Notes: a model not told the origin generated them from the letters alone. 64,000 bases of DNA from Fibrobacterota bacterium (GCA_947482115.1 CANKII010000001.1:448785-512784), one strand, 5' to 3'; positions 5,399 through 63,657 are shown, counted from the stretch's first letter. Made by a program: numbers and translations.

Positions 5399-7204
5399 TT
5401 AATCCTCTTCGCCCGGCTTAATCCCAAATCTCCGCCTCAATTCATCCAGTGAATACCGAATCAATACCGGCGCGCCGGTGGGTGTGACATACGGATTCCT
5501 TGTAGCGAATAAACCGTCCACAATCGCAGCCATGTGCGCCGCATCAAGCGGCTGGCCCAATGGAATAGATGCTGCGCGAGCGTAGGCGCGGGCGACGCGG
5601 GCCAAGAGCTCATCCGCATCTTGATTCTTTCCGCCATGATCCGAATCCAATAATTTCCCAACCAGCGATTGCAGAATCTCCCTGGCTTTTTCCGCCGCCA
5701 CTTCACTGGGCAATCCCCGCAATTGAAACGCCGTCTTGCCGAAAGGTTCCAAATCAAATCCCAGTGCGCGGAGTTCCGGCAATCGTTCTTCAACTGCACG
5801 AGCTTCAGAGACAGTAAACTCCACCAATTCCGGAAACAAAAGCTGCTGTGCGTTGAACCGCCCCGGACGGCGCATGTCTTCCAAAGATTTTTCATACAGA
5901 ATGCGTTCATGCGCAGCCTGTTGATTCACCAGCAGAAAACCACTTTGCACCGCCACCAGAATAAAACTGCCATGAATCTGTAGGCTCGGCGCGCCAGTTG
6001 TTTCAGCGGGAACCGGCATGGATGCAGGAAAGCGAGCATCAACAGGGAAAAGTGTCGGAGCAGGAATGGATTCAACAGGTGATGGAGATTCGGAAACCGA
6101 CATGGAATCCGGTGGAGTGAAAGTAAAGGCAGGGATTTCAGTAACTGAAGTGGCTTCCGCTACTGACTCGCTTTTCACCGGTGTGGAGACATTGAGTTCC
6201 AATGACGGTGCATTGATAGTTTGACGCAACGCCTTCCGCAGGGCCTGTGACAAGGCCCAAAAGACCCGTACTTCATTGAGGAAGCGCACTTCGCGCTTCG
6301 CAGGATGAATGTTCACATCCACTTCGGCGGGGGAGATGGAGATGAACAATGCCGACACGGGATAGCGACCAGGCGAGGTGACTTCATAAGCCTGCGACAC
6401 GGCACGTGTCAACATTCCACCTTGCACATAACGGCGGTTGATGAAGAAGTATTGCTGGTTGGGGCGGCTCGAAAAACGCTGCGGCTCGGAGATATATCCC
6501 TGTATGTGAATCCCATCGCCTTCCCAGTCCACTTCCACCAAATCGGCGAGAAGATGAACACCCAAGACATCACCTGCCCGGCGGCGCAAGGTGCCTTCGG
6601 GAAGATGGAGCAATTCCCGTGTACCTTCGGAGAGCCGGATGGAAACACCGGGATGCGCCAAAGACATGCGCGTCAGTAATCCGGAAATGCGCGTACCTTC
6701 CGCCTTGCCGCTCGACAAAAATTTTCGCCGCACCGGATTATTCCGGAATAAATTTCGAATGGAAAATGTCGTCCCCTGCGGCCGCGCAATGTCCTTCAGT
6801 TCTTCCTGTTGTGATTCCACCACGCGAAGCAAGGTGCCGATTTCTTCTTCCCAATGCCGTGTCTCCACGGTGAATTCGGAAACGGCTGCCATACTGGCCA
6901 AGGCTTCTCCACGAAATCCGAAGCTGGAAACGATTTCCAAATCTTCCACCGCATTGATTTTGCTGGTGGTGTGGGGGAGCCAACAATGCGAGACATCTTC
7001 ACGTGTCATGCCCGAGCCGTTATCCGCCACGCGAATGAGTTCCTTGCCGCCATCTTCCAGCGTGATGGAAATCTTGGTGGCTCCGGCGTCCAAGGCGTTT
7101 TCGACCAATTCCTTGACCACATTGGCTGGACGCTCAATGACCTCGCCTGCAGCGATTTTTTGGATGGTTAAGGGGGAAAGAGCCTGAATTATGGGGGCGG
7201 GCAT
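5399..7204 (-). CDS. mutL: DNA mismatch repair protein MutL
   Basis: 601 aa; N-terminal GHKL ATPase motifs IAAGEVIERPANVVKELVENALDAGATKI...DNGSGM. Confidence 0.9.
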   Translation of the reverse strand: MPAPIIQALSPLTIQKIAAGEVIERPANVVKELVENALDAGATKISITLEDGGKELIRVADNGSGMTREDVSHCWLPHTTSKINAVEDLEIVSSFGFRGEALASMAAVSEFTVETRHWEEEIGTLLRVVESQQEELKDIARPQGTTFSIRNLFRNNPVRRKFLSSGKAEGTRISGLLTRMSLAHPGVSIRLSEGTRELLHLPEGTLRRRAGDVLGVHLLADLVEVDWEGDGIHIQGYISEPQRFSSRPNQQYFFINRRYVQGGMLTRAVSQAYEVTSPGRYPVSALFISISPAEVDVNIHPAKREVRFLNEVRVFWALSQALRKALRQTINAPSLELNVSTPVKSESVAEATSVTEIPAFTFTPPDSMSVSESPSPVESIPAPTLFPVDARFPASMPVPAETTGAPSLQIHGSFILVAVQSGFLLVNQQAAHERILYEKSLEDMRRPGRFNAQQLLFPELVEFTVSEARAVEERLPELRALGFDLEPFGKTAFQLRGLPSEVAAEKAREILQSLVGKLLDSDHGGKNQDADELLARVARAYARAASIPLGQPLDAAHMAAIVDGLFATRNPYVTPTGAPVLIRYSLDELRRRFGIKPGEED

Positions 7205-7229: not shown

Positions 7230-7378
7230 CCTCACCCCTAACCCCTCTCAATTTGTTAAAGAGATGGAGAGGGAAGGTCTAAATTTTCTTTCTTTCGCTT
7301 TTTTGGGGAACTACCCCTCTCCCGTCCTTTAAGATGGGAGAGGGGCGAATTCATAGACTATGGATTATGGGGTGAGGG
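7230..7378. repeat. composite palindromic repeat, copy A (outer CCTCACCCC...GGGGTGAGG arms enclosing two CCCCTCTC(CC)-loop-G(G)GAGAGGGG hairpins)
   Basis: Intergenic between mutL start and Rrf2 gene; same architecture as 14758..14881 and 38305..38440. Confidence 0.8.
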
Positions 7379-7420
7379 CGTTATACCCTATTGTCCATAT
7401 CAGTTTGATATGATATATTG

Positions 7421-7867
7421 ATGTTCGTGAAGATTACCTCGAAAACCCTGTATTCATTGCACTTTCTGTGTGCTTTGACCATCAAGGCAAAGAGTAACCC
7501 GCAGAAACCCGTGCATTTGCGTGAAATCGCCAAGGAATACGATATCCCATTCAAGTTTTTGGAACAGATCGCCATTCTCATGAAAAGCGTCGGTCTTGTA
7601 AGGGGAACTCGTGGGAAAACAGGGGGTTATCAATTGGCCGAGACTCCAGAGTCCATCAACCTAGCCCGCATCATCAAGGCGACCGAAGGCGAACTTCTGC
7701 CTTGGGCCGACATCGAAGGTGGCAACGAGGTCATTGGTGGAATCTTGCACACGATTTTTCAGGAACAACGCGATGAAATCGACCGGAAACTTTCCGCTAT
7801 TTCATTATCTCAAATCGCTGAGAAGGCGCGCCAACGTTTGGAACCTGCGCCCATGTTTTATCTGTGA
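7421..7867 (+). CDS. Rrf2-family transcriptional regulator (IscR/CymR/NsrR type)
   Basis: N-terminal wHTH of Rrf2 proteins (YSLHFLCALTIKAKSNPQKPVHLREIAKEYDIPFKFLEQIAILMKSVGLVRGTRGKTGGYQLA); precedes cysH-cysK. Confidence 0.75.
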   Translation: MFVKITSKTLYSLHFLCALTIKAKSNPQKPVHLREIAKEYDIPFKFLEQIAILMKSVGLVRGTRGKTGGYQLAETPESINLARIIKATEGELLPWADIEGGNEVIGGILHTIFQEQRDEIDRKLSAISLSQIAEKARQRLEPAPMFYL

Positions 7868-9568: not shown

Positions 9569-9607
9569 ACCCGAACCCTGAACGTAGTCGAAGGGTGAGA
9601 TAATTCC

Positions 9608-10878: not shown

Positions 10879-11269
10879 AAGGGATCAATGAGATTCAAAT
10901 ATGCATTCAACGGTTAGACGCATCGCATCGTTGAATGGGGACGCGGTTTTCGAAAGGAATGTGACTCAAGTCACCCGGGAAAAAGAGGTGGGATACCAAG
11001 CGCCGGTAGGTTGACTTCGGGTCTCGTCTTCAAGAGTCACCCGGTTCAGGATCTGTTCAGTAGAACCATCCACGGGCGGAATCCATATTTCCACCAATAA
11101 TTCGACGTTTTCGCCAGTTTCGAGGATTTCTTCCATCTCGTCCACGGTGTTCTCCCAGATTCTTTCAAATCATACAGTTGGGTTCTGCATTGTATGACGA
11201 AATGAAAAGGGGATTTGGGGACAATGCAAAATGACAAAGATTTATAGGGAATCAAAGAAGCACAAGAGG

Positions 11270-13527: not shown

Positions 13528-15258
13528 ATGTCATACCTCGTCATGGCCCGCAAATGGCGGCCGAAGAACTTCGAAGAAATGGTGGGGCAGGAGCATATCG
13601 CCAAGACGCTCCGCAACGCCCTGACTTCCGGCCGCATCGCCCATGCATTCCTATTCACCGGAACCCGCGGAGTGGGGAAGACCACCTCCGCCAGAATTCT
13701 CGCCAAAGCCTTGAACTGCAAAAATGGCCCAACACCGACGCCTTGTGAAGTCTGCGAAAACTGCCTTGCAGTAAATCAGGGCGCATCCATGGACGTTCTC
13801 GAAATCGACGGCGCGTCCAACAACGGTGTGGACAATGTTCGCGACTTGCGCGAACAGGTGAAGTATGCGCCGATGCACGGCCAATACAAGATTTACATCA
13901 TCGACGAAGTACACATGCTTTCCAAGGCGGCGTTCAACGCTTTGCTCAAGACTTTGGAAGAGCCGCCTCCGCATGTGATTTTCATCTTCGCCACCACCGA
14001 GGTGAGCAAGGTTCCTCACACCATTTTATCCCGCGTCCAACGCTTCGACTTCCGCCGCATTTCCGAGACGGCCATTCGCGATCGACTCGACTTCATTTGC
14101 GGACAGGAAAAGATTCAGTTTGAAGTGGAAGCGCTGGAAGCCATTGCCCGTAAGGCCGACGGCAGCATGCGCGATGCACTGAGCCTGTTTGATCGCGTCG
14201 TCGCCTTTACCGGTGAAAGCCTGACTTTGGAATCCACGCGCAAGGTGCTTGGCATTCCCGAAGACCGGTTGTTCGGGAATTTGTTGAAGTGTTTGATGAC
14301 CCATGATACGGCGGGGTGTTTCAAGGCTTTGGAAGAAGTGTATCATCAGGGTTTGGAGATCTCCGAATTCCTGTCCGGCTTTGGGGAATATCTGCGTGAT
14401 GTGTTGTTCAGCCGTCAGGAAGGCATTACACCCGCTATGTTGGGAGTGGGTGAGGCGCGCTTCCGAGATTTACGAGCCTTGGCTTTGGATCTTCAAGACG
14501 GTGATTTGTTGCGCTATGCCAAGATCACTTCTGATTTACTCGGTGGTTTAAAGACTGCTCCGCATCCACGACTGTGGGTGGAACTGGGCCTGTCGCGTAT
14601 GGCCGCTTTGGATCGCGTGGTCACCTTGTCACAGTTGATGGGGCAGGAATCATTGCCTCCTGTGCATATTCAGCCTGCACCTCCGGTTCAATTGCCTACG
14701 GCAGCAGTACCTATTCCGGAACCGATTCCCGAGGCTAAAAAAAAAAGTCCTGAACAACCCTCATCCCCAACCCCTTCTCCCACGGTAGTGGGAGAAGGGG
14801 AAGAAGAAACGGTTTTAAAACCACAATTCTCTTCTCACCCCTCTCCCGCGTTTAAGGCGGGAGAGGGGCTGGGGGTGAGGGATTTACCCGCCCAATGGAC
14901 CGCATTGGTCGATTCCTATTCCATCGAAAAGCCGCTTACCGCAAGTCCCTTGCGATATAGCCACTTACGCATAAAACCTGAAGAAACTCCCGTGGTGGAA
15001 ATTGTATTTTCAGGGAGTGGACATCACGATCTTTTTCTGGCCGATGGTGAGGGGAAACGCAGCCTCAGAAACTTTCTCGCTGCATCGCTCGAAGCCGACA
15101 GTATTTTCACTTTGGCCTTCGCATTTGAAGAGCCCGTGGGTGGTACATCCAAGTCGGCTCCGGTTACGGAAGGCCTGAATGTTTTGCTGCAACGAGAGCC
15201 CATCGTAAAAACCCTGCTGGACATGTTCGAGGGGCGCGTGCTCGAAGGTCCGGTTTAA
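13528..15258 (+). CDS. dnaX: DNA polymerase III subunits gamma/tau
   Basis: AAA+ clamp-loader motifs RPKNFEEMVGQEHI, GTRGVGKTTSARILAKALNC, zinc module CEVCENC, DEVHML, SRVQRFDF; contains in-frame repeat insert 14758..14881 and A10 tract 14737..14746. Confidence 0.9.
   Translation: MSYLVMARKWRPKNFEEMVGQEHIAKTLRNALTSGRIAHAFLFTGTRGVGKTTSARILAKALNCKNGPTPTPCEVCENCLAVNQGASMDVLEIDGASNNGVDNVRDLREQVKYAPMHGQYKIYIIDEVHMLSKAAFNALLKTLEEPPPHVIFIFATTEVSKVPHTILSRVQRFDFRRISETAIRDRLDFICGQEKIQFEVEALEAIARKADGSMRDALSLFDRVVAFTGESLTLESTRKVLGIPEDRLFGNLLKCLMTHDTAGCFKALEEVYHQGLEISEFLSGFGEYLRDVLFSRQEGITPAMLGVGEARFRDLRALALDLQDGDLLRYAKITSDLLGGLKTAPHPRLWVELGLSRMAALDRVVTLSQLMGQESLPPVHIQPAPPVQLPTAAVPIPEPIPEAKKKSPEQPSSPTPSPTVVGEGEEETVLKPQFSSHPSPAFKAGEGLGVRDLPAQWTALVDSYSIEKPLTASPLRYSHLRIKPEETPVVEIVFSGSGHHDLFLADGEGKRSLRNFLAASLEADSIFTLAFAFEEPVGGTSKSAPVTEGLNVLLQREPIVKTLLDMFEGRVLEGPV
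14737..14753 (+). promoter_or_regulatory. candidate tau/gamma recoding site: A10 slippery run followed by -1-frame UGA
   Basis: AAA AAA AAA A in zero frame; -1 frame reads AAG UCC UGA (stop 14751..14753); GAGG 3 nt upstream; strong hairpin element starts 12 nt downstream. Confidence 0.45.
14758..14881. repeat. composite palindromic repeat, copy C, inserted in frame in dnaX linker
   Basis: CCCTCATCCCC-AA-CCCCTTCTCCC-loop-GGGAGAAGGGG-spacer-CCCCTCTCCC-loop-GGGAGAGGGG-CT-GGGGGTGAGGG; translated as ...SSPTPSPTVVGEGEEETVLKPQFSSHPSPAFKAGEGLGVRD... Confidence 0.8.
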
Positions 15259-25412: not shown

Positions 25413-27455
25413 TTAAGGCGAGTAAACCATTCTGTGGGTAATGGAACCAGACTGTTTGCCATCAAAGTCCTGTCCTGTCATCCGGACAAGATAAAGGCCA
25501 CGCGCAGGGCGGCTGCCATTCGAAGCCAAACCGTTCCAGACAAGAATATTCCGCTGACTTCCAATTTCAATCCGGCTTTCCCAAACCTTCATTCCCTTCA
25601 TATCCAGAATTTCAATCTTGCCACAGGTAGCATTTCCTTTGGGCAGGGCAAACACAATCGCTGATGATCCCGGAATTTTAAGGGTGAAAGATCGGGAACC
25701 TGGTTGTTTTAAAATATCCACCGGGTTGACCACTACGGCAAAAATCAGGGTACTCTTTGTATTTCCCGTCGAATTGGTCACAGTGACAGTATAACCGGCC
25801 GCAGAAACCGGTGTGGTAGGAGTGCCGGAAATAATTCCAGTGCTTGAATTCAGGATCAATCCCGTCGGAAGTGCTGGACTCACAGTGTAAGTGAGTGGAG
25901 TACTTCCTGTAACTGTGGGAATGTTCTGAGAGATCGGATTTCCGACGATGTACAAAGCCGTTGGCGAGGAATATGAAAGATTTGTGGGAGGTGTGTTCGG
26001 TACTGGTGGCATGCCCACAATCAAGGGAAATCCGAGTCCCAGAACCAAATCATTCGATACGCGCACTTCATCAACCTTGCCGCTGAACTGATAATTATCC
26101 CGGCCATTATTGCCCACAAAAAAAGGTCCTGTGGAAACACGGAAAGGATCGGTTACCGGGTTGTTGGTGCCATTACTGTAAAGCTGAAAGGGCGTTCCAT
26201 CGATGTAGCCGTAGGCCTGTCCATTGGATTGATCAAAAGCAATCGCGATGTCCACCCAGCGATTCCGGGGAACGATTCCGTCCACACTCCATTCCCGAAT
26301 CCAATAACCCGTGCCGTTCCTAACCTTTTGGCCATCGGCTTCCAAACGACCGTTCGGGTCAACTACCAAAATGAGGCCGTCGTAAGTACCCATTAGCCAG
26401 CCACCCTGCCCTGGGGTCAAATAAACCCGTGCTTCAAAGGTCATTTTACCGGTGGCGCCAATCGTCAAAGCACTTGCATAGGCATGAGTCAGATAGCTGT
26501 TGGCAATCGTCGCGGTGCCGGTAAAGATGCCGGCGGAATCATAAGGAGAAGAGGTTAATGCGAAATTATTGGCGTTTGACAAACTAAAGGCATTGGGACT
26601 CAAGTCTGTGAATGTGCCGCTGTTGTGGGAGGCAAATGACCACAGTGCCACTGTCGAAGAGTTGAGGGGAAAATGGGTCTGTGTAGCAGGGGGAGAGCCG
26701 ACGATTAAAGGTAAACCAGCCCCCAATATCAAATCATTTGAAACACGGATTTCGTCAATGGTTCCGCTGAATTGATAACTCAGATCCCTACCATTATTGC
26801 CTACGAAAAAGCTGCCTGTTGAAACTCGGAAAGGATCGGTTATGGGATTGCTGGTCCCCGTGCTGTAAAGCTGAATGGGAACTCCATCAATATATCCGTA
26901 AGCCTGTCCCGTGGACTGATCGAAAGCAACCGAGAGATCAAACCATCGATTCAAGGGCACGATTCCAGGAGGACTTACCTCCTGTATCCAATAGCCCGTC
27001 CCATTCCTCACCTTTTGTCCTGCCGCTTGAAAATGGCCGTCCGAACCTATTTGCAGGCTGACGCCATCGTAGGTTCCAATCACCCAGCCACCAAAGTTAC
27101 CCGCACCGCTTTGACCTGGTTTTAAAAACATGCGAACTTCATAGGTTATTCTACCCGTACCCGCGATCGTGAGTGCGCTGGCATTCGCATGGGACAGATA
27201 GCTGGCCGAAAGCGATGCGGAACCCGTAAACACCACGGCAGAATCACTGGGAGATGCCGTTAACGCAAAATTATTGGCACTAGACAAGCTATTACCATTT
27301 GGACTCGAATCAGTGAACGTGTTTCCCACGCGAGAACTAAATGTCCATAGGGCTACGGTGTTAGAATTCACAGTAAAATGTGTGGCACACCAGCTTGGAT
27401 TCGAAACTACGAACAGGGTCAATGTGGATACCAGAATCGATTTCATAGCAGACAT
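25413..27455 (-). CDS. T9SS C-terminal-domain cargo protein with two LamG/concanavalin-like domains and an Ig-like repeat
   Basis: Signal peptide MKSILVSTLTLFVVS; two LamG_3-like domains (FDQSTGQAYGYIDG...IDEIRVSN; second ...VDEVRVSN); C-terminal ~80 aa sorting domain ...LYLVRMTGQDFDGKQSGSITHRMVYSP; track ORF start 27530 likely over-extended. Confidence 0.7.
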   Translation of the reverse strand: MSAMKSILVSTLTLFVVSNPSWCATHFTVNSNTVALWTFSSRVGNTFTDSSPNGNSLSSANNFALTASPSDSAVVFTGSASLSASYLSHANASALTIAGTGRITYEVRMFLKPGQSGAGNFGGWVIGTYDGVSLQIGSDGHFQAAGQKVRNGTGYWIQEVSPPGIVPLNRWFDLSVAFDQSTGQAYGYIDGVPIQLYSTGTSNPITDPFRVSTGSFFVGNNGRDLSYQFSGTIDEIRVSNDLILGAGLPLIVGSPPATQTHFPLNSSTVALWSFASHNSGTFTDLSPNAFSLSNANNFALTSSPYDSAGIFTGTATIANSYLTHAYASALTIGATGKMTFEARVYLTPGQGGWLMGTYDGLILVVDPNGRLEADGQKVRNGTGYWIREWSVDGIVPRNRWVDIAIAFDQSNGQAYGYIDGTPFQLYSNGTNNPVTDPFRVSTGPFFVGNNGRDNYQFSGKVDEVRVSNDLVLGLGFPLIVGMPPVPNTPPTNLSYSSPTALYIVGNPISQNIPTVTGSTPLTYTVSPALPTGLILNSSTGIISGTPTTPVSAAGYTVTVTNSTGNTKSTLIFAVVVNPVDILKQPGSRSFTLKIPGSSAIVFALPKGNATCGKIEILDMKGMKVWESRIEIGSQRNILVWNGLASNGSRPARGLYLVRMTGQDFDGKQSGSITHRMVYSP

Positions 27456-27539
27456 GGTAACCTCGCTTTTCCTTATGACAAGCCCTAACCCAGATTTAAT
27501 TTCGCTTCGTTTCTGCAAAAATGTTGGCAAATTCGGCGC

Positions 27540-29396
27540 CTAAGGTGAATACACCATTCTTCGAGTCACAATACCAGCTTGTTTTCCATCCAAATCGAAC
27601 CCAGTCAAACGAACAAGGTAAAGCCCGCTAGCAGGACGCAAACCGTTGGTAGTAACACCATTCCATGCAAGAGTGTTTTCCCGATTTGCAAGCTCAGTCC
27701 GGCTTCCCCAAATCTTCATTCCCTTCATGTCAATAATTTCCAGCCTGCCATTCGACATGCTTCCTTTCGGCATGACAAATACGATGGATGCAGAGCCTGG
27801 GATTTTCAGTGTGAATGAACTGGCATCGGATTGTTGCAGGATACCTACTGGATTGATTACGGCCAGGGTCAAAGTTGCCGTGGTGCTTCCGGCCTGATTG
27901 GTTGCGGTGATGGTGTAATTTGCCGCTGCTGAAGGTGTGGTGGGTTTTCCGGTAATGATTCCTGTGCTTGTACTCAAGGTAAGGCCTGCAGGAAGTGACG
28001 GACTCACAACGTAAGTGATGGTGGCGCTTCCGCTGATGCTCGGTGTATTGGGTGTGATGGTCGTTCCGACGATGTACAATGCCGAACTGGAGGAGTACGA
28101 AAGACCGGAAGGTGGAAGACGTACTGTAATTACCAGTGTAGTGGTTGCTCCCCCGCTGGCGGTCACCGTATAGCTCGCAGTGGAAGCAGGCGTGGTGGGT
28201 GTTCCGGATATCACCCCGGTGGTTGTGTTCAATGTCAATCCGGCTGGCAAAGCGGGACTCACAGAATAACCGGTTATTGTTCCGTTCACCGTAGGGGTGT
28301 TCGGTGTAATGACTGTACCGACCACATATTGGGCTGGATTTGAGGAGTAAACAAAGGTGGGTGCAGTAGTCACCGTAATGTTCAGCGTGGCAGTTGTGGA
28401 GCCCAGTGTATTGGTTGCAATCACCACATAACTTGCCGGTGGGGAGGTTACAGTGGGAGTTCCGGTAATGGCTCCCGTGCCTGTGTTCAATGTCAATCCG
28501 GCTGGGAGTGCAGGTGTTACGGAGTAGGTTATGGGCGTGGTTCCATTGATCGTTGGAGTGTTTGTTGTGATGGCAGCTCCCACATAATAAGTTGCGGGAT
28601 TCAAGGAATACACAAGATTTGTCGGAGGCGTTTGCACAGTTGGTGGAGTACTGGCATTCAGCGGAAGTCCCGCGCCGTACACCAAATTGTTGGAAACACG
28701 GACTTCATCGATAAGCCCATTAAAAGGGTGGCCGTCAGTAGGTGTGGCTCCGACCTCAAAATTACTTGTCGCCGTTCTCCAGGAATCCGTATTGGGGGCC
28801 GGATATCCTGAATGCGTATAAAGCTGAACCGGGCTTTCGTCGATATAACCGTAAGCCTGTCCTGTGGAGTTATCAAATGAGGTTGCCACATCAACCCAGC
28901 GGTTCAGAGGCACAACCCCATTCGCGGATATAAACCATACCCAATAACCCGTGCCGCCGCTTATTTTTTGCCTTCCAATTGAAAGAAATCCTCCTGCGCC
29001 AATTGTGACAGAAAGGCCGTCATAACTGCCCACGACCGTATAACCAACAGTTCCCGTAGGATACTGTGTTAGATAAATGCGGCCTTCAAGGGTCATTTTC
29101 CCTGTCCCGCTAATGTTCAGCAAAGAGGTATTTGTATGGCTCAGTCCGTTCGCGCCTTGGGATCCCGTAAAGCTGACTGCAGAATCCGTAGGGGAGGAAA
29201 CCAGGGAGAAGCTGTTGGCATTGGATAAGCTAAGGCCATTCGGGCCGAGGTCGGGAATGCTACCGCTGCTCCGCGAAGCGAATGACCACAATGCTGTTGT
29301 TGAAGCGTTCACGGTAAAATGCGTTGCGCTCCAGCCCGGATTCGAAACAACAAACAGGGTCATTGTGGATACAAGAATCGATTTCAGTGTAGTCAT
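27540..29396 (-). CDS. T9SS C-terminal-domain cargo protein with one LamG-like domain and five Ig-like (putative Ig/PF05345-like) repeats
   Basis: Paralogous signal peptide (MTTLKSILVSTMTLFVVS), LamG-like domain (...IDEVRVSNNL), repeated ~75-aa PAGLTLNT.TG.I.GTPT modules, T9SS CTD ...LYLVRLTGFDLDGKQAGIVTRRMVYSP. Confidence 0.7.
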   Translation of the reverse strand: MTTLKSILVSTMTLFVVSNPGWSATHFTVNASTTALWSFASRSSGSIPDLGPNGLSLSNANSFSLVSSPTDSAVSFTGSQGANGLSHTNTSLLNISGTGKMTLEGRIYLTQYPTGTVGYTVVGSYDGLSVTIGAGGFLSIGRQKISGGTGYWVWFISANGVVPLNRWVDVATSFDNSTGQAYGYIDESPVQLYTHSGYPAPNTDSWRTATSNFEVGATPTDGHPFNGLIDEVRVSNNLVYGAGLPLNASTPPTVQTPPTNLVYSLNPATYYVGAAITTNTPTINGTTPITYSVTPALPAGLTLNTGTGAITGTPTVTSPPASYVVIATNTLGSTTATLNITVTTAPTFVYSSNPAQYVVGTVITPNTPTVNGTITGYSVSPALPAGLTLNTTTGVISGTPTTPASTASYTVTASGGATTTLVITVRLPPSGLSYSSSSALYIVGTTITPNTPSISGSATITYVVSPSLPAGLTLSTSTGIITGKPTTPSAAANYTITATNQAGSTTATLTLAVINPVGILQQSDASSFTLKIPGSASIVFVMPKGSMSNGRLEIIDMKGMKIWGSRTELANRENTLAWNGVTTNGLRPASGLYLVRLTGFDLDGKQAGIVTRRMVYSP

Positions 29397-29484
29397 GGGC
29401 CTCTCCATTTGTGTCTTGTAAAAAGAATATTCCCTTTTGAACTTTAACCCGGCGACTCCAGAAAATGTTGGTAAAACCCGATCC

Positions 29485-31773
29485 CTAGGGCGAATACACC
29501 ATTCTTTGAGTTCTAACGATGGCCTGCTTTTTGTTCAAATCCACACCCGTCATGCGAACCAAATAAAGCCCGCTGGCAGGACGCAAGCCGTTCGAAGCCA
29601 AACCGTTCCAGGCAAGAACATTCTGCTGATTTCCGACTTCAACCCGGCTTTCCCACACACTTGTTCCCTTCATGTCCAGGATTTCCAATTTGTAATTAGA
29701 AGCATGTCCATTCGGCAGAGAAAAAACCATTGAAGATGAACCGTGAATTTTCAGGGTGAATGATCGGATATCGGATTGTTGCAGAATACCTACTGGATTG
29801 GTTACGGCCAGAGTCAAAGTTGCCGTGGTGTTTCCCGCCGGATTGCTCGCTGTGATGACATAATTCGCCGCAGCCGAAGGTGTTGTCGGAGTTCCAGAAA
29901 TAATTCCAGTGCTTGCATTGAGTACCAGTCCGGCTGGCAAAACCGGATTTACGGAGTAGGTAATAGTGGCGCTGCCGGTAATGGTGGGGGTATTTGAAGT
30001 AATGGCAGTTCCAACGATGTACAATGCTGTGGGTGAGGAATACGAAAGGTTGGAAGGTGCAAGACGTGCCGTAATGATTAAAGTGGCGGTTGCTGAACCA
30101 CCCGTCGTATTGACGGTAATCACATAGCTGCCGTTCGAAACAGGCGTAGAAGGCGTTCCCGATATGACACCCGTCGTGGTATTTAAAACCAGTCCGCTGG
30201 ACAAGGCGGGGGTTACGGAATAACTGGTCGCTGTTCCAGTCACGGTAGGTGTATTTGGAGTGATTGCTGTCCCCACTATGTATTGAGCCGGGTTCGCAGA
30301 ATAGGAAAGAGTTGGTGCGGGCATCACACTGATATTCAGGGAAAGGGTGGTGGACCCCACGGAATTGGTCGCTGTCACGGTATAATTTGCCGACGGAGAT
30401 ATTACGGTAGGCGTTCCGACAATGATTCCGGTGCCAGTGTTCAAGTTTAATCCGGCTGGAAGCGTGGGGGTCACGGAATAGGTAATCGGCGTTGTACCTG
30501 ATACTGTGGGATTATTCGGGGTAATGGCCGCTCCGATTCCATAAGTTGCGGGATTGGAGGAATAAGTGAGACCGGATGGAGGCGCCAGCACGGTAATATT
30601 CAACGTGGTCAATGTGTATGAAGAACCATTGAAGGCGTTCACCGTATAAATGGTGGCAGGTGAGGATGTCGCGGGAGTTCCTGAAATGGCACCGGTATTG
30701 GTATTGAATGTTAATCCGGCTGGAAGAGTGGGACTGATGGTATAGGACGTGATGGATTGTGTGGTAATAGTGGGAATATTCGGTGAAATGGCAGTCCCGG
30801 CAAAGTACACTGCAGGATTTGTAGGATAAACGAGATCCGATGCGAAGTAGGTCTGGAAAGCGAATTTCAAAACAGTGCCGTTGTCTCCGGCGGCATAACC
30901 TGTGGTGGAATCCGGGAAATAAATGCCGTTGAAATTCCACGTCGTGGGCAGGCTTTGGGAAACCCAATTTGTACCGCCATTGGTGGTTTTGAGAACCACG
31001 TTTGAACTTCCGGATCCGCCCACGGCATAACCGGTGGTGGGACTTATGAAATAAATTCCGCGCAAGGGCTTGGTATTGCCCGTGGTCTGGGCCGTCCAGT
31101 TGGAACCGCCATTGGTGGTTTTTAAAATCCCTCCGCTGAAGGTGGTGGCATAACCCGTTGAACTATTGTTGAAATAGGTGGCCCAAACTATTGCCGTGAC
31201 ACCGCTGGTTTGGGAAACCCAGGTAGCTCCGCCGTTTGTGGTTTTGACAATTCTCCCGCCACTCCCCACGACATAACCCGTATCTGCACTGGTAAAATAC
31301 GCGTTCAGAAAATCAGAGGTCACTCCGCTATTTTGAGTGACCCAGTTTGTGCCGCCGTTGGTAGTTTTAAGAATGGTGCCGCCATATCCGACGACGTATC
31401 CCAGACTCGAATTGATAAAGAAGCCGCGGGTTAGATTTTGGGTGGTACCGCTTGTCTGGAGATTCCAGTTGGCACCGCCATTGGTGGTTTTAAGAATAGT
31501 ACTGGATGCCGTCATCCAACCGGTGCTTGTGTCCACGAATTGAACGAAAGTAACAGCGCTTGAAGTCCCGCTGTTTTGTGCTGTCCAACTTGTTCCACCG
31601 TTCGTGGTTTTAAGAACCGCCGAGCCGCCTACAACGTAGCCGAATCTGGAATTGAGGAAGCTGGCCCTGTGAAGCGTTTCGGACGACCCGGTGGGTAGCA
31701 GGGTCAGTGTTTGTGCCGGAATGATCGAAAAAAGCGCAAGGACACAGAGTGATGCGAGCAACCGGATTTTCAT
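29485..31773 (-). CDS. T9SS C-terminal-domain cargo protein with Ycf48/BNR-like beta-propeller and five Ig-like repeats
   Basis: Signal peptide; seven ILKTTNGGTNW-type blades; same Ig-like modules and CTD (...LYLVRMTGVDLNKKQAIVRTQRMVYSP) as neighbours. Confidence 0.7.
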   Translation of the reverse strand: MKIRLLASLCVLALFSIIPAQTLTLLPTGSSETLHRASFLNSRFGYVVGGSAVLKTTNGGTSWTAQNSGTSSAVTFVQFVDTSTGWMTASSTILKTTNGGANWNLQTSGTTQNLTRGFFINSSLGYVVGYGGTILKTTNGGTNWVTQNSGVTSDFLNAYFTSADTGYVVGSGGRIVKTTNGGATWVSQTSGVTAIVWATYFNNSSTGYATTFSGGILKTTNGGSNWTAQTTGNTKPLRGIYFISPTTGYAVGGSGSSNVVLKTTNGGTNWVSQSLPTTWNFNGIYFPDSTTGYAAGDNGTVLKFAFQTYFASDLVYPTNPAVYFAGTAISPNIPTITTQSITSYTISPTLPAGLTFNTNTGAISGTPATSSPATIYTVNAFNGSSYTLTTLNITVLAPPSGLTYSSNPATYGIGAAITPNNPTVSGTTPITYSVTPTLPAGLNLNTGTGIIVGTPTVISPSANYTVTATNSVGSTTLSLNISVMPAPTLSYSANPAQYIVGTAITPNTPTVTGTATSYSVTPALSSGLVLNTTTGVISGTPSTPVSNGSYVITVNTTGGSATATLIITARLAPSNLSYSSPTALYIVGTAITSNTPTITGSATITYSVNPVLPAGLVLNASTGIISGTPTTPSAAANYVITASNPAGNTTATLTLAVTNPVGILQQSDIRSFTLKIHGSSSMVFSLPNGHASNYKLEILDMKGTSVWESRVEVGNQQNVLAWNGLASNGLRPASGLYLVRMTGVDLNKKQAIVRTQRMVYSP

Positions 31774-37576: not shown

Positions 37577-37605
37577 GGGCGCATAGCCATGCGCCCCTAC
37601 GGGGG
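37568..37605. terminator. perfect 17-bp-stem palindrome at convergent SprT/trmB ends (bidirectional terminator candidate)
   Basis: CCCCCGTAGGGGCGCAT-AGCC-ATGCGCCCCTACGGGGG; both stop codons (TAG) and the HPP C-termini of both proteins lie in the mirrored arms. Confidence 0.5.
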
Positions 37606-38301
37606 ATGCACCCGTAACACACACCGGTAAATCGGTTTTCCGATCTTTCGGTATTTGATCTCAAAGTTGGTTTGAATCCCCTCGGTGGGTTCCGCTTTCG
37701 GATCGATCATTTCCAGCCACGGCATGCGTTTGAAAAGCTCCTGCGTCTCCAGATTGTATTCCTCATGATCGGTGCCAAAGAAAAACAGGGCATCGGGAGT
37801 GGAAATGCGCCGGACCTGATCGAGAAACTCTTCCTGCATGATCCGGTGTTTGTGATGCCGCTTCTTCGGCCATGGATCGGGAAAATAAACGTGCACGGCT
37901 TTTGTACAGGCATCGGGTAAAAAGTCCCGGAAGAAAATCAGGGCGTCACCCAAGACCAAACGCACGTGTTTAAGCTGGGGGCGTCGGGCCACACGACCGG
38001 CGGCGATGTAGGCGATCTCGGCTTCTTTCTCCAAAGCCAGAAAAGGCATGTCCGGATGCCTTTCGCAATAGGACGTCATGAAAGTTCCCTTGCCGCAACC
38101 CACCTCGATTTCAATGGGACCCGGGACTCCGAAAAATGCGGGGATGTCGATGGGCGTTGTCGCCGGAGTGTTTTCCGTCCTCAGCAGGGGAAGGTCTGCA
38201 TCGTCCTTCAGCAACCGCAAATGAAAATAGTGTTTCAGGTCGTGGCTGGGGGTCAGCGCACGCTGGAATTCGTAAGAGGATAGCCCGGAGGGAAGGGACA
38301 T
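37597..38301 (-). CDS. trmB: tRNA (guanine46-N7)-methyltransferase
   Basis: IEVGCGKGTFM SAM motif, ...FPDPWPKKRHHKHR. Confidence 0.85.
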   Translation of the reverse strand: MSLPSGLSSYEFQRALTPSHDLKHYFHLRLLKDDADLPLLRTENTPATTPIDIPAFFGVPGPIEIEVGCGKGTFMTSYCERHPDMPFLALEKEAEIAYIAAGRVARRPQLKHVRLVLGDALIFFRDFLPDACTKAVHVYFPDPWPKKRHHKHRIMQEEFLDQVRRISTPDALFFFGTDHEEYNLETQELFKRMPWLEMIDPKAEPTEGIQTNFEIKYRKIGKPIYRCVLRVHPP

Positions 38302-38304
38302 ACG

Positions 38305-38440
38305 CCCTCACCCCCAACCCCTCTCCCATCTTAAAGGATGGGAGAGGGGAGAGGAACAAATGTTTTTTTTTGTTTTGAACACGAGCATTTATCTTCCCCC
38401 CTCTCCCACTTTTTGGTGGGAGAGGGGATGGGGGTGAGGG
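38305..38440. repeat. composite palindromic repeat, copy B
   Basis: CCCTCACCCCC-AA-CCCCTCTCCC-loop-GGGAGAGGGG-AT-rich spacer (T9 run)-CCCCTCTCCC-loop-GGGAGAGGGG-AT-GGGGGTGAGGG between trmB and gatB; causes ORF caller to over-extend gatB to 38338. Confidence 0.8.
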
Positions 38441-38463: not shown

Positions 38464-39915
38464 ATGTCATACAGCATTGTCATTGGATTGGAAGTACACG
38501 CCCAGCTCTCCACAAACACCAAAATGTTTTGCGGTTGCCGGGTCGAATTTGGCGCAGAGCCGAACACCTTGATTTGCCCCGTCTGCCTCGGTATGCCCGG
38601 CACCTTGCCTGCGCCCAATGCGACGGCTGTGGAAAGCGCTGTCAAAATGGGACTGGCCTGCGGCTCCCGGATTGAGCCGCGCCCCATGTGGACGCGCAAG
38701 AATTATTTCTATCCCGATCTTCCCAAGGGTTACCAGATCACCCAGCAGGGGGGATCGCCGATTTACGATAAGCCGATTTGCACCGGCGGCCATCTTGAAA
38801 TCGATTTGGAAGATGGAACCCGCAAGCGTATCCGGTTGAACCGCATCCACATGGAAGAGGATGCCGGAAAACTGATTCACGATCTCACGGTCAATGATTC
38901 CCTGTTCGATGCCAATCGCTGCGGCACGCCCCTGATCGAGATTGTCACTGAAGCGGATCTTCGCTCGCCGCGTGAAGCTTATCTGTATCTGGAAAAGCTC
39001 AAGCAAATTCTCGAATATCTTGAGATTTGCGACGCGAACATGGAACGCGGAAACTTGCGTTGTGATGCCAACATCTCATTGCGTAAAGATGAGAACGCTC
39101 CGTTCGGCGAACGCATTGAACTCAAGAACATGAACTCTTTCCACAACATTGAAAAAGCGTTGGAATCGGAGATTGAATTACAGGCAGGAATGCTGGATCG
39201 CGGCGAAGTCGTCAAGCGTGTGACCAAACGTTGGGATGTGCAAAAAGGCGTCACTGTGTCCGTGCGTAGCAAGGAAGATGCGCAGGACTACCGTTATTTC
39301 CCGGAACCCGATTTGGTGCGTCTGAGCGTCACTGAAGCAGATGTGGAATCCATCCGAAAGGTTTTACCGGAATTGCCGGAGGCCCGTCGTCGTCGTTATG
39401 TCGAAGTTTACAGCGTCCCGCCTTATGACGCCGATGTATTGACCCGTGAAAAGGCAGTCTCGGAATTTTTTGAATCCGTATGCGCAGTGACCTCCGACAA
39501 GAAGGCTGCTTCCAACTGGGTCATGGGCGAAGTGTTGCGTGTGCTCAAGGATGGAAATCTCTCCATCACTGATTTGAAATTCACCCCGCAGCATTTGGGA
39601 GAGATGATCAATCTCATTCAAACGGGAGCCATTTCAGGCAAGATCGCCAAAACCGTTTTCGAACACATGGTGGCCGAAGGCAAACCACCGGAGCAAATCG
39701 TCCGCGAGCAGAATCTTTCCGTGATCAGCGACTCTTCCGCCATTGAAGGATTTATCCGTCAGGTGATGGAACAGGATGCCGAGAAGGTAGGCGAGTACCG
39801 GAGTGGCAAGGTGAAATTGTTCGGCTATTTCGTGGGTCAGGTGATGAAGGCCTGTCAGGGCAAAGCCAGCCCGGATCAAGTAAATGCCCTGTTGCAAAAG
39901 ATGCTGGCGGGGTAG
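38464..39915 (+). CDS. gatB: Asp-tRNA(Asn)/Glu-tRNA(Gln) amidotransferase subunit B
   Basis: MSYSIVIGLEVHAQLSTNTKMFCGC...ICPVCLG (GatB N-terminal Zn/cradle motifs); true start ATG 38464. Confidence 0.9.
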   Translation: MSYSIVIGLEVHAQLSTNTKMFCGCRVEFGAEPNTLICPVCLGMPGTLPAPNATAVESAVKMGLACGSRIEPRPMWTRKNYFYPDLPKGYQITQQGGSPIYDKPICTGGHLEIDLEDGTRKRIRLNRIHMEEDAGKLIHDLTVNDSLFDANRCGTPLIEIVTEADLRSPREAYLYLEKLKQILEYLEICDANMERGNLRCDANISLRKDENAPFGERIELKNMNSFHNIEKALESEIELQAGMLDRGEVVKRVTKRWDVQKGVTVSVRSKEDAQDYRYFPEPDLVRLSVTEADVESIRKVLPELPEARRRRYVEVYSVPPYDADVLTREKAVSEFFESVCAVTSDKKAASNWVMGEVLRVLKDGNLSITDLKFTPQHLGEMINLIQTGAISGKIAKTVFEHMVAEGKPPEQIVREQNLSVISDSSAIEGFIRQVMEQDAEKVGEYRSGKVKLFGYFVGQVMKACQGKASPDQVNALLQKMLAG

Positions 39916-41842: not shown

Positions 41843-41889
41843 CTTCGTACCCTTCGACTACGCTCAGGGTACGAGACAAGGAGTTTAAG

Positions 41890-55444: not shown

Positions 55445-55516
55445 TTATTCCGCCTTCACCCATCTTTTCAACACGTGTTCCTTCCATACCTCAAACGTCC
55501 CCTCCAAAATCTGCTG
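55445..55516 (-). pseudogene. displaced/duplicated 3'-terminal fragment of tgt (24 codons incl. stop)
   Basis: Minus-strand reads QQILEGTFEVWKEHVLKRWVKAE* vs Tgt C-terminus QQILDGTFEVWKDQLLRSWMKVEE*; first 38 nt identical to tgt (1 mismatch), remainder diverged; preceded by in-frame stops. Confidence 0.5.
55479..55516. repeat. 38-bp direct repeat, left copy (att-like)
   Basis: TCCTTCCATACCTCAAACGTCCCCTCCAAAATCTGCTG; partner at 62558..62595 differs at one base. Confidence 0.8.
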
Positions 55517-62520: not shown

Positions 62521-63657
62521 TTACTCCTCGACCTTCATCCAACTCCTCAGTAACTGATCCTTCCATACCTCAAACGTCCCATCCAAAATCTGCTGCCGCG
62601 CCACCCGCATCAAGTCCTGATAGAAATGCAGACTGTGCAGCGTCGCCAGTTCCAGCGCCAGAATTTCTCCGGAAACAAAAATATGCCGCAGATAGGCCCG
62701 TGAGAAATTACGACAGCAATAACACGAGCAATCCGGATCAACAGGCATATCCAGCTCCTTCGCATGCCGCGCCGCCTTATAATGAAAAGGCCCATTCCAT
62801 GTGAATACGGTTCCATGCCGCGCGGCGCGCGTGGGGAGAACGCAGTCGAACATGTCGATGCCCCGGGAAATTAATTCCAGCAAATTGGCTGGTGTGCCCA
62901 CGCCCATCACATAACGCGGTTTGTTGGTGGGCATCAAATTCGTGGAAAAGTCGGCTACGGAATACATCTCTTCAGCCGGTTCACCGACAGAAAGGCCGCC
63001 CAGCGCATAACCTGGCAGATCCAGTTTGATCAAATGTTCAATGGCTTTGGCCCGCAATTCCTCGTGCATTCCGCCCTGCGCGATGCCGAAGAAATATTGC
63101 GGATAGCCGTGCATCTCCGGATGATCCTTTAGCCATGTCACAGCGCGTTCATGCCAGCGCTGCGTCAGCTCAAGACTTTTCACTGCCACGTCCTTCGTAG
63201 CTGGATAGGGAGTGCATTCGTCGAAGGCCATGAAAATATCCGCACCAAGTTTGCGCTGTGCTTCCATCACACTTTCCGGCGTGAACATGTGTTTCGAGCC
63301 ATCGAGATGGGAGCGGAACTCCACACCTTTTTCTGTCAGCTTGCGCAAAGTTTCCAGACTCCATACCTGAAACCCGCCCGAGTCGGTGAGCATGGCATGC
63401 GGCCAGCTGGCGAAGCGATGCAGTCCTCCGGCTTGGGCCACGAGATCGCAACCGGGACGGAGATACAGGTGATAGGTGTTTCCAAGAATTAATCGCGCGC
63501 CCGTGTCCGCCACATCGCGCGGGGAAACGGCCTTGACCGCACCCGCGGTGCCTACTGGCATGAACACTGGTGTTTGAATGGTGGCATGAGCGGTATGCAA
63601 TGTACCCGCGCGCGCCTTGCTTGCGGAAGACGTTTTCTCGAGATTGAAAAAGCTCAT
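62521..63657 (-). CDS. tgt: queuine tRNA-ribosyltransferase
   Basis: 378 aa; TPVFMPVGTAGAVK, catalytic Asp regions, zinc site CSCYCC...H; 3' end carries right copy of 38-bp direct repeat. Confidence 0.9.
   Translation of the reverse strand: MSFFNLEKTSSASKARAGTLHTAHATIQTPVFMPVGTAGAVKAVSPRDVADTGARLILGNTYHLYLRPGCDLVAQAGGLHRFASWPHAMLTDSGGFQVWSLETLRKLTEKGVEFRSHLDGSKHMFTPESVMEAQRKLGADIFMAFDECTPYPATKDVAVKSLELTQRWHERAVTWLKDHPEMHGYPQYFFGIAQGGMHEELRAKAIEHLIKLDLPGYALGGLSVGEPAEEMYSVADFSTNLMPTNKPRYVMGVGTPANLLELISRGIDMFDCVLPTRAARHGTVFTWNGPFHYKAARHAKELDMPVDPDCSCYCCRNFSRAYLRHIFVSGEILALELATLHSLHFYQDLMRVARQQILDGTFEVWKDQLLRSWMKVEE
62558..62595. repeat. 38-bp direct repeat, right copy (inside tgt 3' end)
   Basis: TCCTTCCATACCTCAAACGTCCCATCCAAAATCTGCTG. 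Confidence 0.8.

Follow-up and report, generated by a model that had tools for sequence, protein, structure and literature searches.

Each half of three composite palindromes in a 64,000-nucleotide stretch of DNA from a Fibrobacterota bacterium (the window, by which the whole of this stretch is meant) is very probably, judging from its sequence, a module of the repeat known from Escherichia coli as BoxC, PIT, TMECO or HPG1-2. The account that we favour, with a probability of roughly 0.7, is that the elements are BoxC-family doublets which are likely to be selfish and may have spread via a DUF559-type cassette. The initial annotation had regarded them as a novel family without a name; however, each half matches BoxC/PIT/TMECO/HPG1-2 and has the same cores as the E. 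coli copies, and for the window the result mainly corrects a label, to a Fibrobacterota-lineage member of the BoxC/triplex-motif family rather than a new family. The family is known and the host lineage newly recorded, and the association with DUF559 genes is the part worth pursuing. The origin and spread of BoxC have been a standing question for three decades, since 1992, and the bracketing of DUF559 genes by modules, including that of E. coli ycjD at the founding locus of BoxC, supplies a concrete candidate enzyme.

Anatomy and family membership of the three elements

Reading of the sequence at all three sites bore out the composite palindromes of 124-149 bp that had been claimed there. The first copy (7230..7378, no strand assigned) lies in the intergenic region between the divergent genes mutL (5399..7204, minus strand), the start codon of which is 25 nt from its left end, and an Rrf2-family regulator gene (7418..7867, plus strand), a conserved upstream segment of which, CCTATTGTCCATATCAGTTTGATATG, starts approximately 10 nt past its right end. 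This copy is damaged, in that an outer arm (7230-7238) is followed by a degenerate left hairpin (approximately 7242-7275; CCCCTCTCAATTTGTTAAAGAGATGGAGAGGGA), a spacer and a right hairpin (7314-7345), the latter split from the second outer arm (7369-7378) by a 23-nt insert (7346-7368). The second copy (14758..14881, plus strand) sits in frame within dnaX (13528..15258, plus strand), which encodes DNA polymerase III tau/gamma, and consists of a left module (14758-14800), a spacer (14801-14837) and a right module (14838-14881), with an 11-nt variant (TCAT/TTCT/AGAA) present in all three arms of the left module (CCCTCATCCCC / CCCCTTCTCCC / GGGAGAAGGGG). The third copy (38305..38440, no strand assigned) comprises a left module (38305-38349), a spacer (approximately 38350-38395) and a right module (38396-38440), and occupies the spacer between a divergent trmB-like methyltransferase gene (Methyltransf_4; 37597..38301, minus strand), the start codon of which is 3 nt from its left end, and gatB (38464..39915, plus strand), the conserved start of which (MSYS...) is 23 nt past its right end. 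Longer ORFs and gene calls for gatB begin within this copy. The 64 kb therefore hold three doublets beside unrelated housekeeping genes, two of them intergenic and one within dnaX.

The arm sequence CCTCAYCCC occurs six times in the window, at both ends of each of the three elements, compared with an expectation of 1.1, and a count of six was reached in none of 100 shuffles. Exact CCCCTCTCCC/GGGAGAGGGG pairs were confined to the three elements across the 64-kb window, the RNA folds of the three copies scored z = -5 to -10.8 relative to shuffled controls, and a repeat finder grouped the hairpins as a family and returned copy 3 as a 46-nt inverted repeat. Reading the three copies thus upheld the description of a dispersed family in which the G/C arms are conserved whereas loops and spacers vary. 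The architecture said to be common to them held as far as the G/C arms, which are in place, but not for the left hairpin of copy 1, which is degenerate, or for the spacers, which span 37-64 nt. The hairpin loops had been put at 8-12 nt; the stems, however, are often 12-13 bp long, extended by ATC/GAT, AC/GT or GC/GC pairs, hence the true loops are of 4-7 nt once these extensions are counted; the window subtype has ATC-TTAAAG-GAT loops. A known RNA family or a tRNA-derived element was rejected as the identity of the repeat, as neither Rfam at gathering thresholds nor ARAGORN returned a hit across the whole window, and the matches from Rfam in its E-value mode were confined to generic miRNA-hairpin models and scored far below threshold.

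The unit that could be recognised in each half is a module made up of a hairpin, CCCCTCTCCC-loop-GGGAGAGGGG, a linker of 2-5 nt and a third arm, GGGGTGAGGG, with each copy in the window forming a doublet of two inverted modules whose third arms lie outward around an A/T-rich spacer. BoxC was first described in E. coli in 1992 (Bergler 1992), followed by the PIT element in 2000 (Hoyne & Maher 2000, 2002), TMECO in 2015 (Holder et al. 2015, PMC4666352) and HPG1/HPG2, a G-quadruplex-hairpin switch, in 2016 (Kaplan et al. 2016, PMC5100583). The published consensus is CCCTCNCCC-N3-6-GGGNGAGGG-N3-GGGNGAGGG (PMC4666352), and the stems of the E. coli TMECO/BoxC copies are CCCTCTCCC / GGGAGAGGG / GGGTGAGGG (Table 1, PMC4666352). 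The window stems are the same as these, which were also read directly in E. coli (NC_000913, 164.5 kb), and the window sequence ruled out the presence of unrelated arms at the positions of the E. coli consensus. A search on one strand for the three consecutive blocks CCCTCNCCC ... GGGNGAGGG ... GGGNGAGGG, in which the loops were relaxed, gave exact matches to four of the six modules in the window, against an expectation of 0.00; of the other two modules, one is the 11-nt co-varying variant and one is degenerate. The strict published pattern, with a first loop of 3-6 nt and a second of exactly 3 nt, gave no hits in the window because the loops there are longer: if 9-nt stems are assumed, the first loop measures 10-12 nt and the second 5 nt, or 25 nt in copy 1.

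The likeness to BoxC/TMECO extends to the same three blocks, core sequences and mirror-repeat logic, to a recurrent mismatch variant, GGGCGAGGG, common to both, and to the behaviour of a multi-copy, dispersed repeat that often forms inverted pairs and is unstable between close relatives. In contrast, the arms in the window are of 10-11 nt rather than the 9 nt of E. coli, the first loop measures 10-12 nt between arms, partly as extra stem, rather than the published 3-6 nt, and the second, of 3 nt in the published pattern, measures 2-5 nt, or 23-25 nt in copy 1. Third arms face outward in the window and inward in E. coli, one window copy is intragenic whereas the E. coli copies are all intergenic, and the window host appears to be a Fibrobacterota-like MAG.

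Published work on E. coli describes multi-copy, dispersed motifs, all intergenic, next to genes without a functional theme (PMC4666352), at loci that are unusually variable among strains (PMC4666352, PMC5100583). According to published work, E. coli and Shigella have many copies and Salmonella has none. An isolated strand folds in vitro as a class II purine intrastrand triplex or as a G-quadruplex (PMC4666352, PMC5100583); DMS footprinting, however, detected no triplex in vivo, and no link to known mobile elements was found (Holder et al., PMC4666352). Reports of the strict TMECO pattern are limited to 262 proteobacterial genomes; cyanobacteria and other groups have related G/C-rich triplex motifs. 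In the window, the G-strand GGGAGAGGGGCTGGGGGTGAGGG carries four G-tracts of at least 3 nt with loops of at most 3 nt, as a G-quadruplex requires, and a window module as single-stranded DNA may, like the E. coli version, fold either as a purine-motif triplex or as a G-quadruplex.

The pairing that is conserved was found to be that within a module. Of 92 modules drawn from loci that were not selected by module sequence, 86 have a third arm equal to the reversed C-arm, a T being taken as either T or A, and all readable window modules obey this mirror rule (triads G*G-C, A*A-T and T*A-T). Five co-varying classes were distinguished (TCA/TCT, TCAT/TTCT, TCT/TCT, T/T, and AT or TT/TT). The left outer arm of copy 2, CCCTCATCCCC, co-varies with its own hairpin (TTCT/AGAA) and mismatches the right outer arm, and in the orthologous dnaX copy of the relative L124 the matching positions of the three arms are C, C and (G), where the window has T, T and A. 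The mirror rule and its co-variation support the published three-strand reading or, alternatively, a recognition constraint across all three arms, and they favour assigning each outer arm to its adjacent hairpin, as a third arm, over pairing it with the outer arm at the other end of the element. Of the proposal that the outer arms form a three-way junction, what stands is that such an RNA junction can be drawn, with the outer arms of copies 2 and 3 paired in the RNA folds; the pairing itself is not the conserved feature.

Variation among relatives and the copy within dnaX

At each of the three sites the nearest relatives depart from the window. In the window 162 nt separate trmB from gatB, compared with 29 nt in both L133 and the P0244 contig, 31 nt in L130 and approximately 69 nt in L131, and the element is absent at this site in all four. 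As the difference in spacer length equals the size of the element, the whole doublet would have arrived as one unit, and the third copy looks like a single gain of approximately 133-136 bp in the window lineage. No target-site duplication was visible on comparing the filled and empty trmB/gatB sites, the flanks of which have diverged too far for this to carry much weight. L133 is on the same contig as L124, and the GatB proteins of L133 and P0244 belong to the 90%-identity protein cluster of the window GatB. In L124, the closest relative in the mutL/Rrf2 comparison, this site lacks the element and has a different G/C palindrome in its place, with the Rrf2-side sequence conserved. Insertion sites compared with relatives were thus empty in four cases at trmB/gatB and in L124 at mutL/Rrf2, and the dnaX copy was half-decayed. 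The behaviour likened earlier to that of REP, MITE or RPE sequences was confirmed, in that the elements are short, palindromic and ORF-less, vary in presence and absence among relatives, and include one copy in frame in a gene.

The copy within dnaX is read through in frame as PSSPTPSPTVVGEGEEETVLKPQFSSHPSPAFKAGEGLGVR, approximately 41 residues rich in Pro, Ser and Gly. It starts 11 nt past a run of ten A residues (14737..14746, plus strand), where the tau-only part of the protein begins, and its first hairpin is 24 nt from the run. The A10 run is in phase and followed by G[TC]CCTGA, an arrangement kept in four lineages, the run and the stop being conserved in L124, L125 and L127; one extra A or a -1 slip at the run leads to KKKK(S/P)-stop, the stop lying two codons on in the -1 frame. 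Judged by what is established for dnaX of E. coli and Thermus, the run is probably the tau/gamma slippage site of this gene. The doublet is hence translated within an essential replication gene just past its putative slippage site, pristine in the window and decaying in an orthologue.

L124, the DnaX of which is 77% identical to that of the window, carries this orthologous copy, with identities to the window of 77% for the left module, 62% for the spacer, 61% for the right module and 64-69% for the flanking dnaX sequence; its left half has been kept and its right half has decayed to the identity level of the flanks. In L125 and L127 only faint traces of the copy were seen. As the identity of the spacer (62%) is close to that of the flanks, shared ancestry of the copy is favoured over independent insertion, and by this comparison the insertion is probably old. 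Both modules of the window copy are nevertheless perfect although the dnaX flanks have diverged by approximately 33%, a state that selection could account for, as could homogenisation against other copies or a fresh insertion into this site.

For this copy alone, it is conceivable that the insertion was co-opted as a downstream RNA structure that sets the tau:gamma ratio by tuning programmed slippage on the A10 run. The conservation of the run with G[TC]CCTGA, the start of the element only 11 nt after it, the predicted folding energy of the 150 nt downstream (-86.8 kcal/mol in the window and -28 to -48 kcal/mol in relatives) and the better preservation in L124 of the half nearest the run (77% against 61%) would all suit such a role. 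L125 and L127, however, retain the slippage site with no comparable structure, which indicates that the element is not required for slippage. From what is established for Thermus dnaX, an A10 run would be able to slip during transcription with no RNA stimulator, and a distance of 24 nt to the first hairpin is far for a stimulator of ribosomal frameshifting. Co-option is accordingly considered improbable; it would in any case be compatible with the main explanation.

Modules in other genomes and the DUF559 genes they bracket

The BoxC family is pan-bacterial and closely associated with one subfamily of DUF559 genes. A scan of a genome collection containing one genome per species retrieved the 22-nt core (left end CCTCACCCCCANCCCCTCTCCC) unchanged in at least 120 stretches from at least 12 phyla, including Chloroflexota, Planctomycetota, Cyanobacteria, Bacteroidota, Acidobacteriota, Armatimonadota, Nitrospirae, Verrucomicrobiota, Bipolaricaulota and others; alpha-, beta-, gamma- and deltaproteobacteria were also among the matches listed. 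The unit that recurs across genomes is one outer arm with its own hairpin, mostly with hairpin loops of 2-8 nt and a linker of 2 nt in the modules of other phyla. A sample of 195 modules from other genomes contained 24 outward doublets, 12 inward doublets, 10 tandem pairs, 91 solo modules and 10 single hairpins flanked by arms on both sides. The outward doublet was the commonest paired arrangement, hence the architecture seen in the window is not a local peculiarity; it is widespread in the sampled genomes and has been little described, and insertion into coding sequence has likewise been little noted before. The third arms of the E. coli K-12 pair, read directly, face inward as in the 12 inward doublets sampled.

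In a search for an autonomous parent of the element, one pair of modules was found to enclose a 100-residue DUF559 ORF, encoding a Vsr-like PD-(D/E)xK nuclease. Among the 120 module-selected loci listed, six carried a PF04480 ORF (E = 1e-32 to 1e-36), and in four or five of these six it was directly bracketed by modules. A further 80 metagenome loci were selected solely by a DUF559 peptide motif and ranked by similarity to the DUF559 ORFs that had themselves been found beside modules, hence this sample describes one subfamily. A strict module was counted in 53 of the 80 loci, and 29 were listed as showing none under the strict pattern; a module lay within 150 nt of the DUF559 ORF in 47, and modules lay on both sides within 200 nt of it in 21. 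Module density was 3.87/kb at 0-100 nt from the ORF and fell outward to 1.03, 0.27, 0.16 and 0.09/kb, the values at 400-1500 nt being 0.09-0.16/kb. Both polarities of flanking modules occurred. At 27 of the 80 loci, no stop interrupted the DUF559 frame for at least 120 codons on either side, so that the cassette lies in frame in a host gene, with hosts including hsdM (in which the N6_Mtase domain was split), hsdR and a gene for an FGE-sulfatase domain protein.

The E. coli K-12 gene ycjD is itself a DUF559 gene, the last codons of which lie within an GGGAGAGGG arm, and TMECO #9 is located 168 nt beyond its end, next to fabI. It was at this ycjD locus, next to envM/fabI, that BoxC was first reported. 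No link of DUF559 or ycjD to BoxC or triplex motifs was found in the open-access literature, which is no proof of novelty. Within the 64-kb window no DUF559, transposase, integrase or RAYT gene was detected by tblastn or by Pfam searches of 30 ORFs, the remaining ORFs having been labelled through synteny. Between module pairs 0.3-4 kb apart in other genomes, no IS or transposase was found; apart from the DUF559 case, the intervening sequence consisted of ordinary host genes, such as those for an acyl-CoA dehydrogenase, an aminotransferase and an HMG-CoA lyase-like protein.

Origin and spread of the doublets

The window elements are likely to be a selfish repeat of the insertion type. Under the account favoured here, the three copies would be a dispersed ORF-less repeat, each a doublet of inverted BoxC/PIT/TMECO modules, and such a doublet would be the dependent form of a cassette whose two modules bracket a DUF559 gene. 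The module-DUF559-module cassette would be the autonomous form, either free-standing or in frame in hsdM, hsdR and other genes, whilst the ORF-less doublets and the solo modules, which far outnumber it, would depend on it and be maintained or copied by nuclease-triggered repair. It is tentatively proposed that the modules are the cis-acting ends of a pan-bacterial selfish system of which a small DUF559 nuclease (YcjD-type, Vsr-like) is the enzyme. Such a nuclease, with its gene elsewhere in the genome, would cut folded (or duplex) modules or the DNA close to them, and repair after the cut would lead to doublets being copied, spread, homogenised or deleted, with no host benefit being necessary for their spread. 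That DUF559 is the enzyme behind the spread of the modules is a possibility to which we give somewhat less than even odds. The direction could also be the opposite, in that DUF559 genes insert or home into pre-existing doublets, or both could favour the same sites; no transposition or homing event has been observed, in this analysis or in the literature. Five of the six reading frames of a module are stop-free, hence doublets can be tolerated in genes as linker peptides rich in Pro, Ser and Gly, such as the tau-only linker of DnaX. The co-varying indel in all arms alters the length by 3 nt, which together with the stop-free frames could explain how coding sequence came to be colonised.

Structural DNA that serves the host is an unlikely alternative to selfish spread. 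Under that explanation, switching between duplex, hairpin, triplex and G-quadruplex would be useful in itself (in replication or transcription pausing, nucleoid organisation or local variability), and the wide distribution of the family would reflect selection on function. A three-arm mirror rule upheld across several co-varying variants would be expected of such DNA, as would a pristine dnaX copy amid diverged flanks, the siting of two of the three window copies between divergent start codons, and the folding in vitro and the variability of module loci among strains recorded for E. coli (PMC4666352, PMC5100583). However, the triplex was not seen in vivo, and published tests in E. coli were negative for promoter, terminator and in-vivo polymerase-blocking activity (PMC4666352, PMC5100583). 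The window elements do not keep their positions among close relatives, copy 1 shows visible decay, and the neighbouring genes lack a functional theme, as they do in E. coli. A role as terminator was rejected on the same published tests and on the absence of a T-tail at either the mutL/Rrf2 or the trmB/gatB site, and no promoter-like match was found at trmB/gatB. The mutL/Rrf2 site contains three consensus-level promoter matches against 0.6 expected, two of which are on the mutL strand and overlap or abut copy 1.

Two further explanations are far less probable. That the elements constitute an undescribed palindromic family akin to REP/BIME, MITE or RPE sequences, the outer arms of which pair as a cruciform or three-way junction, agrees with the pairing of these arms in the RNA folds of copies 2 and 3, with the frequency of outward-arm doublets in other genomes and with the presence of one copy in frame in a gene, as in RPEs; yet the sequence is that of the known BoxC/PIT/TMECO/HPG motif, 91 of the 195 modules are solo and so have no partner arm, the doublet arms of E. 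coli face inward, and the outer arm co-varies with its own hairpin instead of the opposite arm, all of which makes this explanation very hard to sustain. Equally remote is a derivative of a classical transposable element, either a MITE of a DDE-transposase IS or a REP/IS200/IS605-type sequence moved by a Y1 (HUH) transposase. Terminal inverted repeats, small size, many copies and presence/absence polymorphism are all features of such derivatives, but a target-site duplication was not seen, searches of the window ORFs and of the sequence between distant module pairs elsewhere yielded no transposase, the module is missing a GTAG-type REP head, and its core is invariant across phyla whereas REPs are species-specific. 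RAYT-associated REP/BIME sequences were rejected as the identity of the repeat on the missing head, the cross-phylum core and the lack of a Y1 transposase in the window.

The favoured account, of selfish doublets dependent on a DUF559-type cassette, would parallel the arrangement of REP doublets (REPINs) and their RAYT gene. A REP is a species-specific imperfect palindrome of 20-40 nt with a GTAG-like 5' tetranucleotide, and RAYT genes are flanked by REPs. Common to both systems are short palindromic units dispersed as inverted doublets, of which a few copies bracket a small nuclease-type gene, in both flanking polarities, and most are ORF-less. In contrast, the gene bracketed by modules is DUF559 (Vsr-like PD-(D/E)xK) rather than a Y1/HUH transposase, the BoxC-type module is nearly invariant across phyla where REPs differ per species, and the DUF559 cassette, the mobility of which we infer, is often in frame in host genes. 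If the account is true, the modules and DUF559 would form a second system of the REPIN/RAYT kind, with a nuclease of another fold at its centre, and the BoxC repeat would thereby be explained.

RPEs resemble the window elements in being palindromic, approximately 100-150 bp long, and in frame in essential genes, where they are translated as extra peptide segments. RPEs are not known outside Rickettsia and have no known sequence relationship to the window elements; the core motif differs, and only one of the three window copies is coding. MITEs likewise share the small size, the lack of an ORF, the terminal inverted repeats and the presence/absence between relatives, but the window element showed no target-site duplication at the filled and empty sites compared, no parent IS encoding a DDE transposase turned up in the searches above, and the termini of the element are three-arm structured motifs.

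The window sequence recurs in several metagenome assemblies, the organism is present in samples such as ERZ28593093 and ERZ28612967, copy 1 is identical in two further assemblies of the same organism (L001 and L002), and the best named homologues of DnaX and GatB were from Fibrobacteria/Fibrobacterota MAGs. With the identical core in at least 12 phyla, the BoxC family is far broader than the 262 proteobacterial genomes of the published survey, and such conservation across phyla is unusual in a short repeat and wants explaining. An ordinary selfish repeat would not readily be expected to stay near-identical over 35 nt across phyla; either horizontal transfer would have to be intense, or a structural or recognition constraint would have to be strong. 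The identical core also occurs on viral contigs, two of which carry the same module-DUF559 cassette.

DUF559 cassettes within host genes and a possible remnant at ycjD

Cassettes comprising an ORF of the Vsr-like nuclease family DUF559, bracketed by copies of the BoxC/PIT/TMECO repeat module, were found in frame within conserved domains of host genes, namely hsdM (loci L140, L149 and L092), hsdR (L143) and a gene encoding a TIR and FGE-sulfatase protein (L162). Among the 80 metagenome loci sampled by a DUF559 peptide motif, 27 had a reading frame that continued without a stop for 120 codons or more in either direction. The placement of the in-frame cassettes is similar to that of inteins, whose splicing domain, however, is absent from them. 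In the ycjD region of Escherichia coli (NC_000913, 1351129-1351430; L214), the 3' segment of this DUF559 gene was found to be duplicated, with the second copy situated between ycjD and the module copy TMECO #9 (gaatattctccagcaccgtctcc); this second copy looks like the leftover of a further DUF559 cassette.

Modules in viral contigs and tandem arrays

The exact 22-nt module core was also present in 79 stretches of IMG/VR viral contigs (L215-L293), and hence phages or prophages could act as carriers of the motif between hosts; the stretches may be either phage DNA proper or host flanks. Some genomes harboured dense tandem arrays of modules, including an Anaerolineales genome (L025) with at least seven modules in approximately 300 nt and a Polyangiales genome (L006) in which the array had a 36-nt period. 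Such arrays constitute a mode of amplification distinct from that of dispersed doublets.

Genes at the module doublets of the window

At the mutL/Rrf2 site, occupied in the window by the first module doublet (copy 1), a relative (L124) carries a different G/C palindrome (CACCCCGGTAGGGGTTGGGTTTACCCAACCCCTACCGGGGT; L124 4100-4145), and this intergenic spot has thus been held by two unrelated palindromes. An in-phase A10 run in dnaX, followed by G[TC]CCTGA, was conserved at the nucleotide level across four lineages, being located at 14737-14757 in the window and at 11186, 6768 and 11183 in relatives L124, L125 and L127, respectively. Either a -1 slip or one additional A at this run results in KKKK(S/P)-stop, and the C-terminal ends of several public DnaX homologues (about 390-400 aa) fall near its position; the run is probably the tau/gamma slippage site of dnaX. 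Both the mechanically derived ORF start on the gatB side (38338) and that of the public gatB gene call P0121 (38428; MGVRVEKTNFHF...) lie within the third module doublet, whereas gatB of the relatives begins at MSYS (window 38464). The stop-free repeat has probably misled the annotation into placing starts within the element.

Other repeats in the window

A 25-nt sequence occurs as two inverted, 92% complementary copies (9572-9596 and 41849-41873), each a few bases past a stop codon (ORF ends 9568 and 41842), the second forming an 8-bp hairpin (CGTACCCT...AGGGTACG). This may be an additional small repeat of the palindromic kind, or else a hairpin that resembles a terminator but is devoid of a T-tail. 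Three large neighbouring genes at 25413-31773 (-), mutually related and internally repetitive, with He_PIG Ig-like, Laminin_G_3 and BNR-like domains, account for families D1-D5 and D8-D9 of the repeat-finder output and probably encode surface proteins. A 64-nt direct repeat (84% identity) has one copy at the 3' end of tgt (62532-62595; tgt 62521-63657, -), whilst the other, intergenic copy (55453-55516) may be a gene-fragment duplication.
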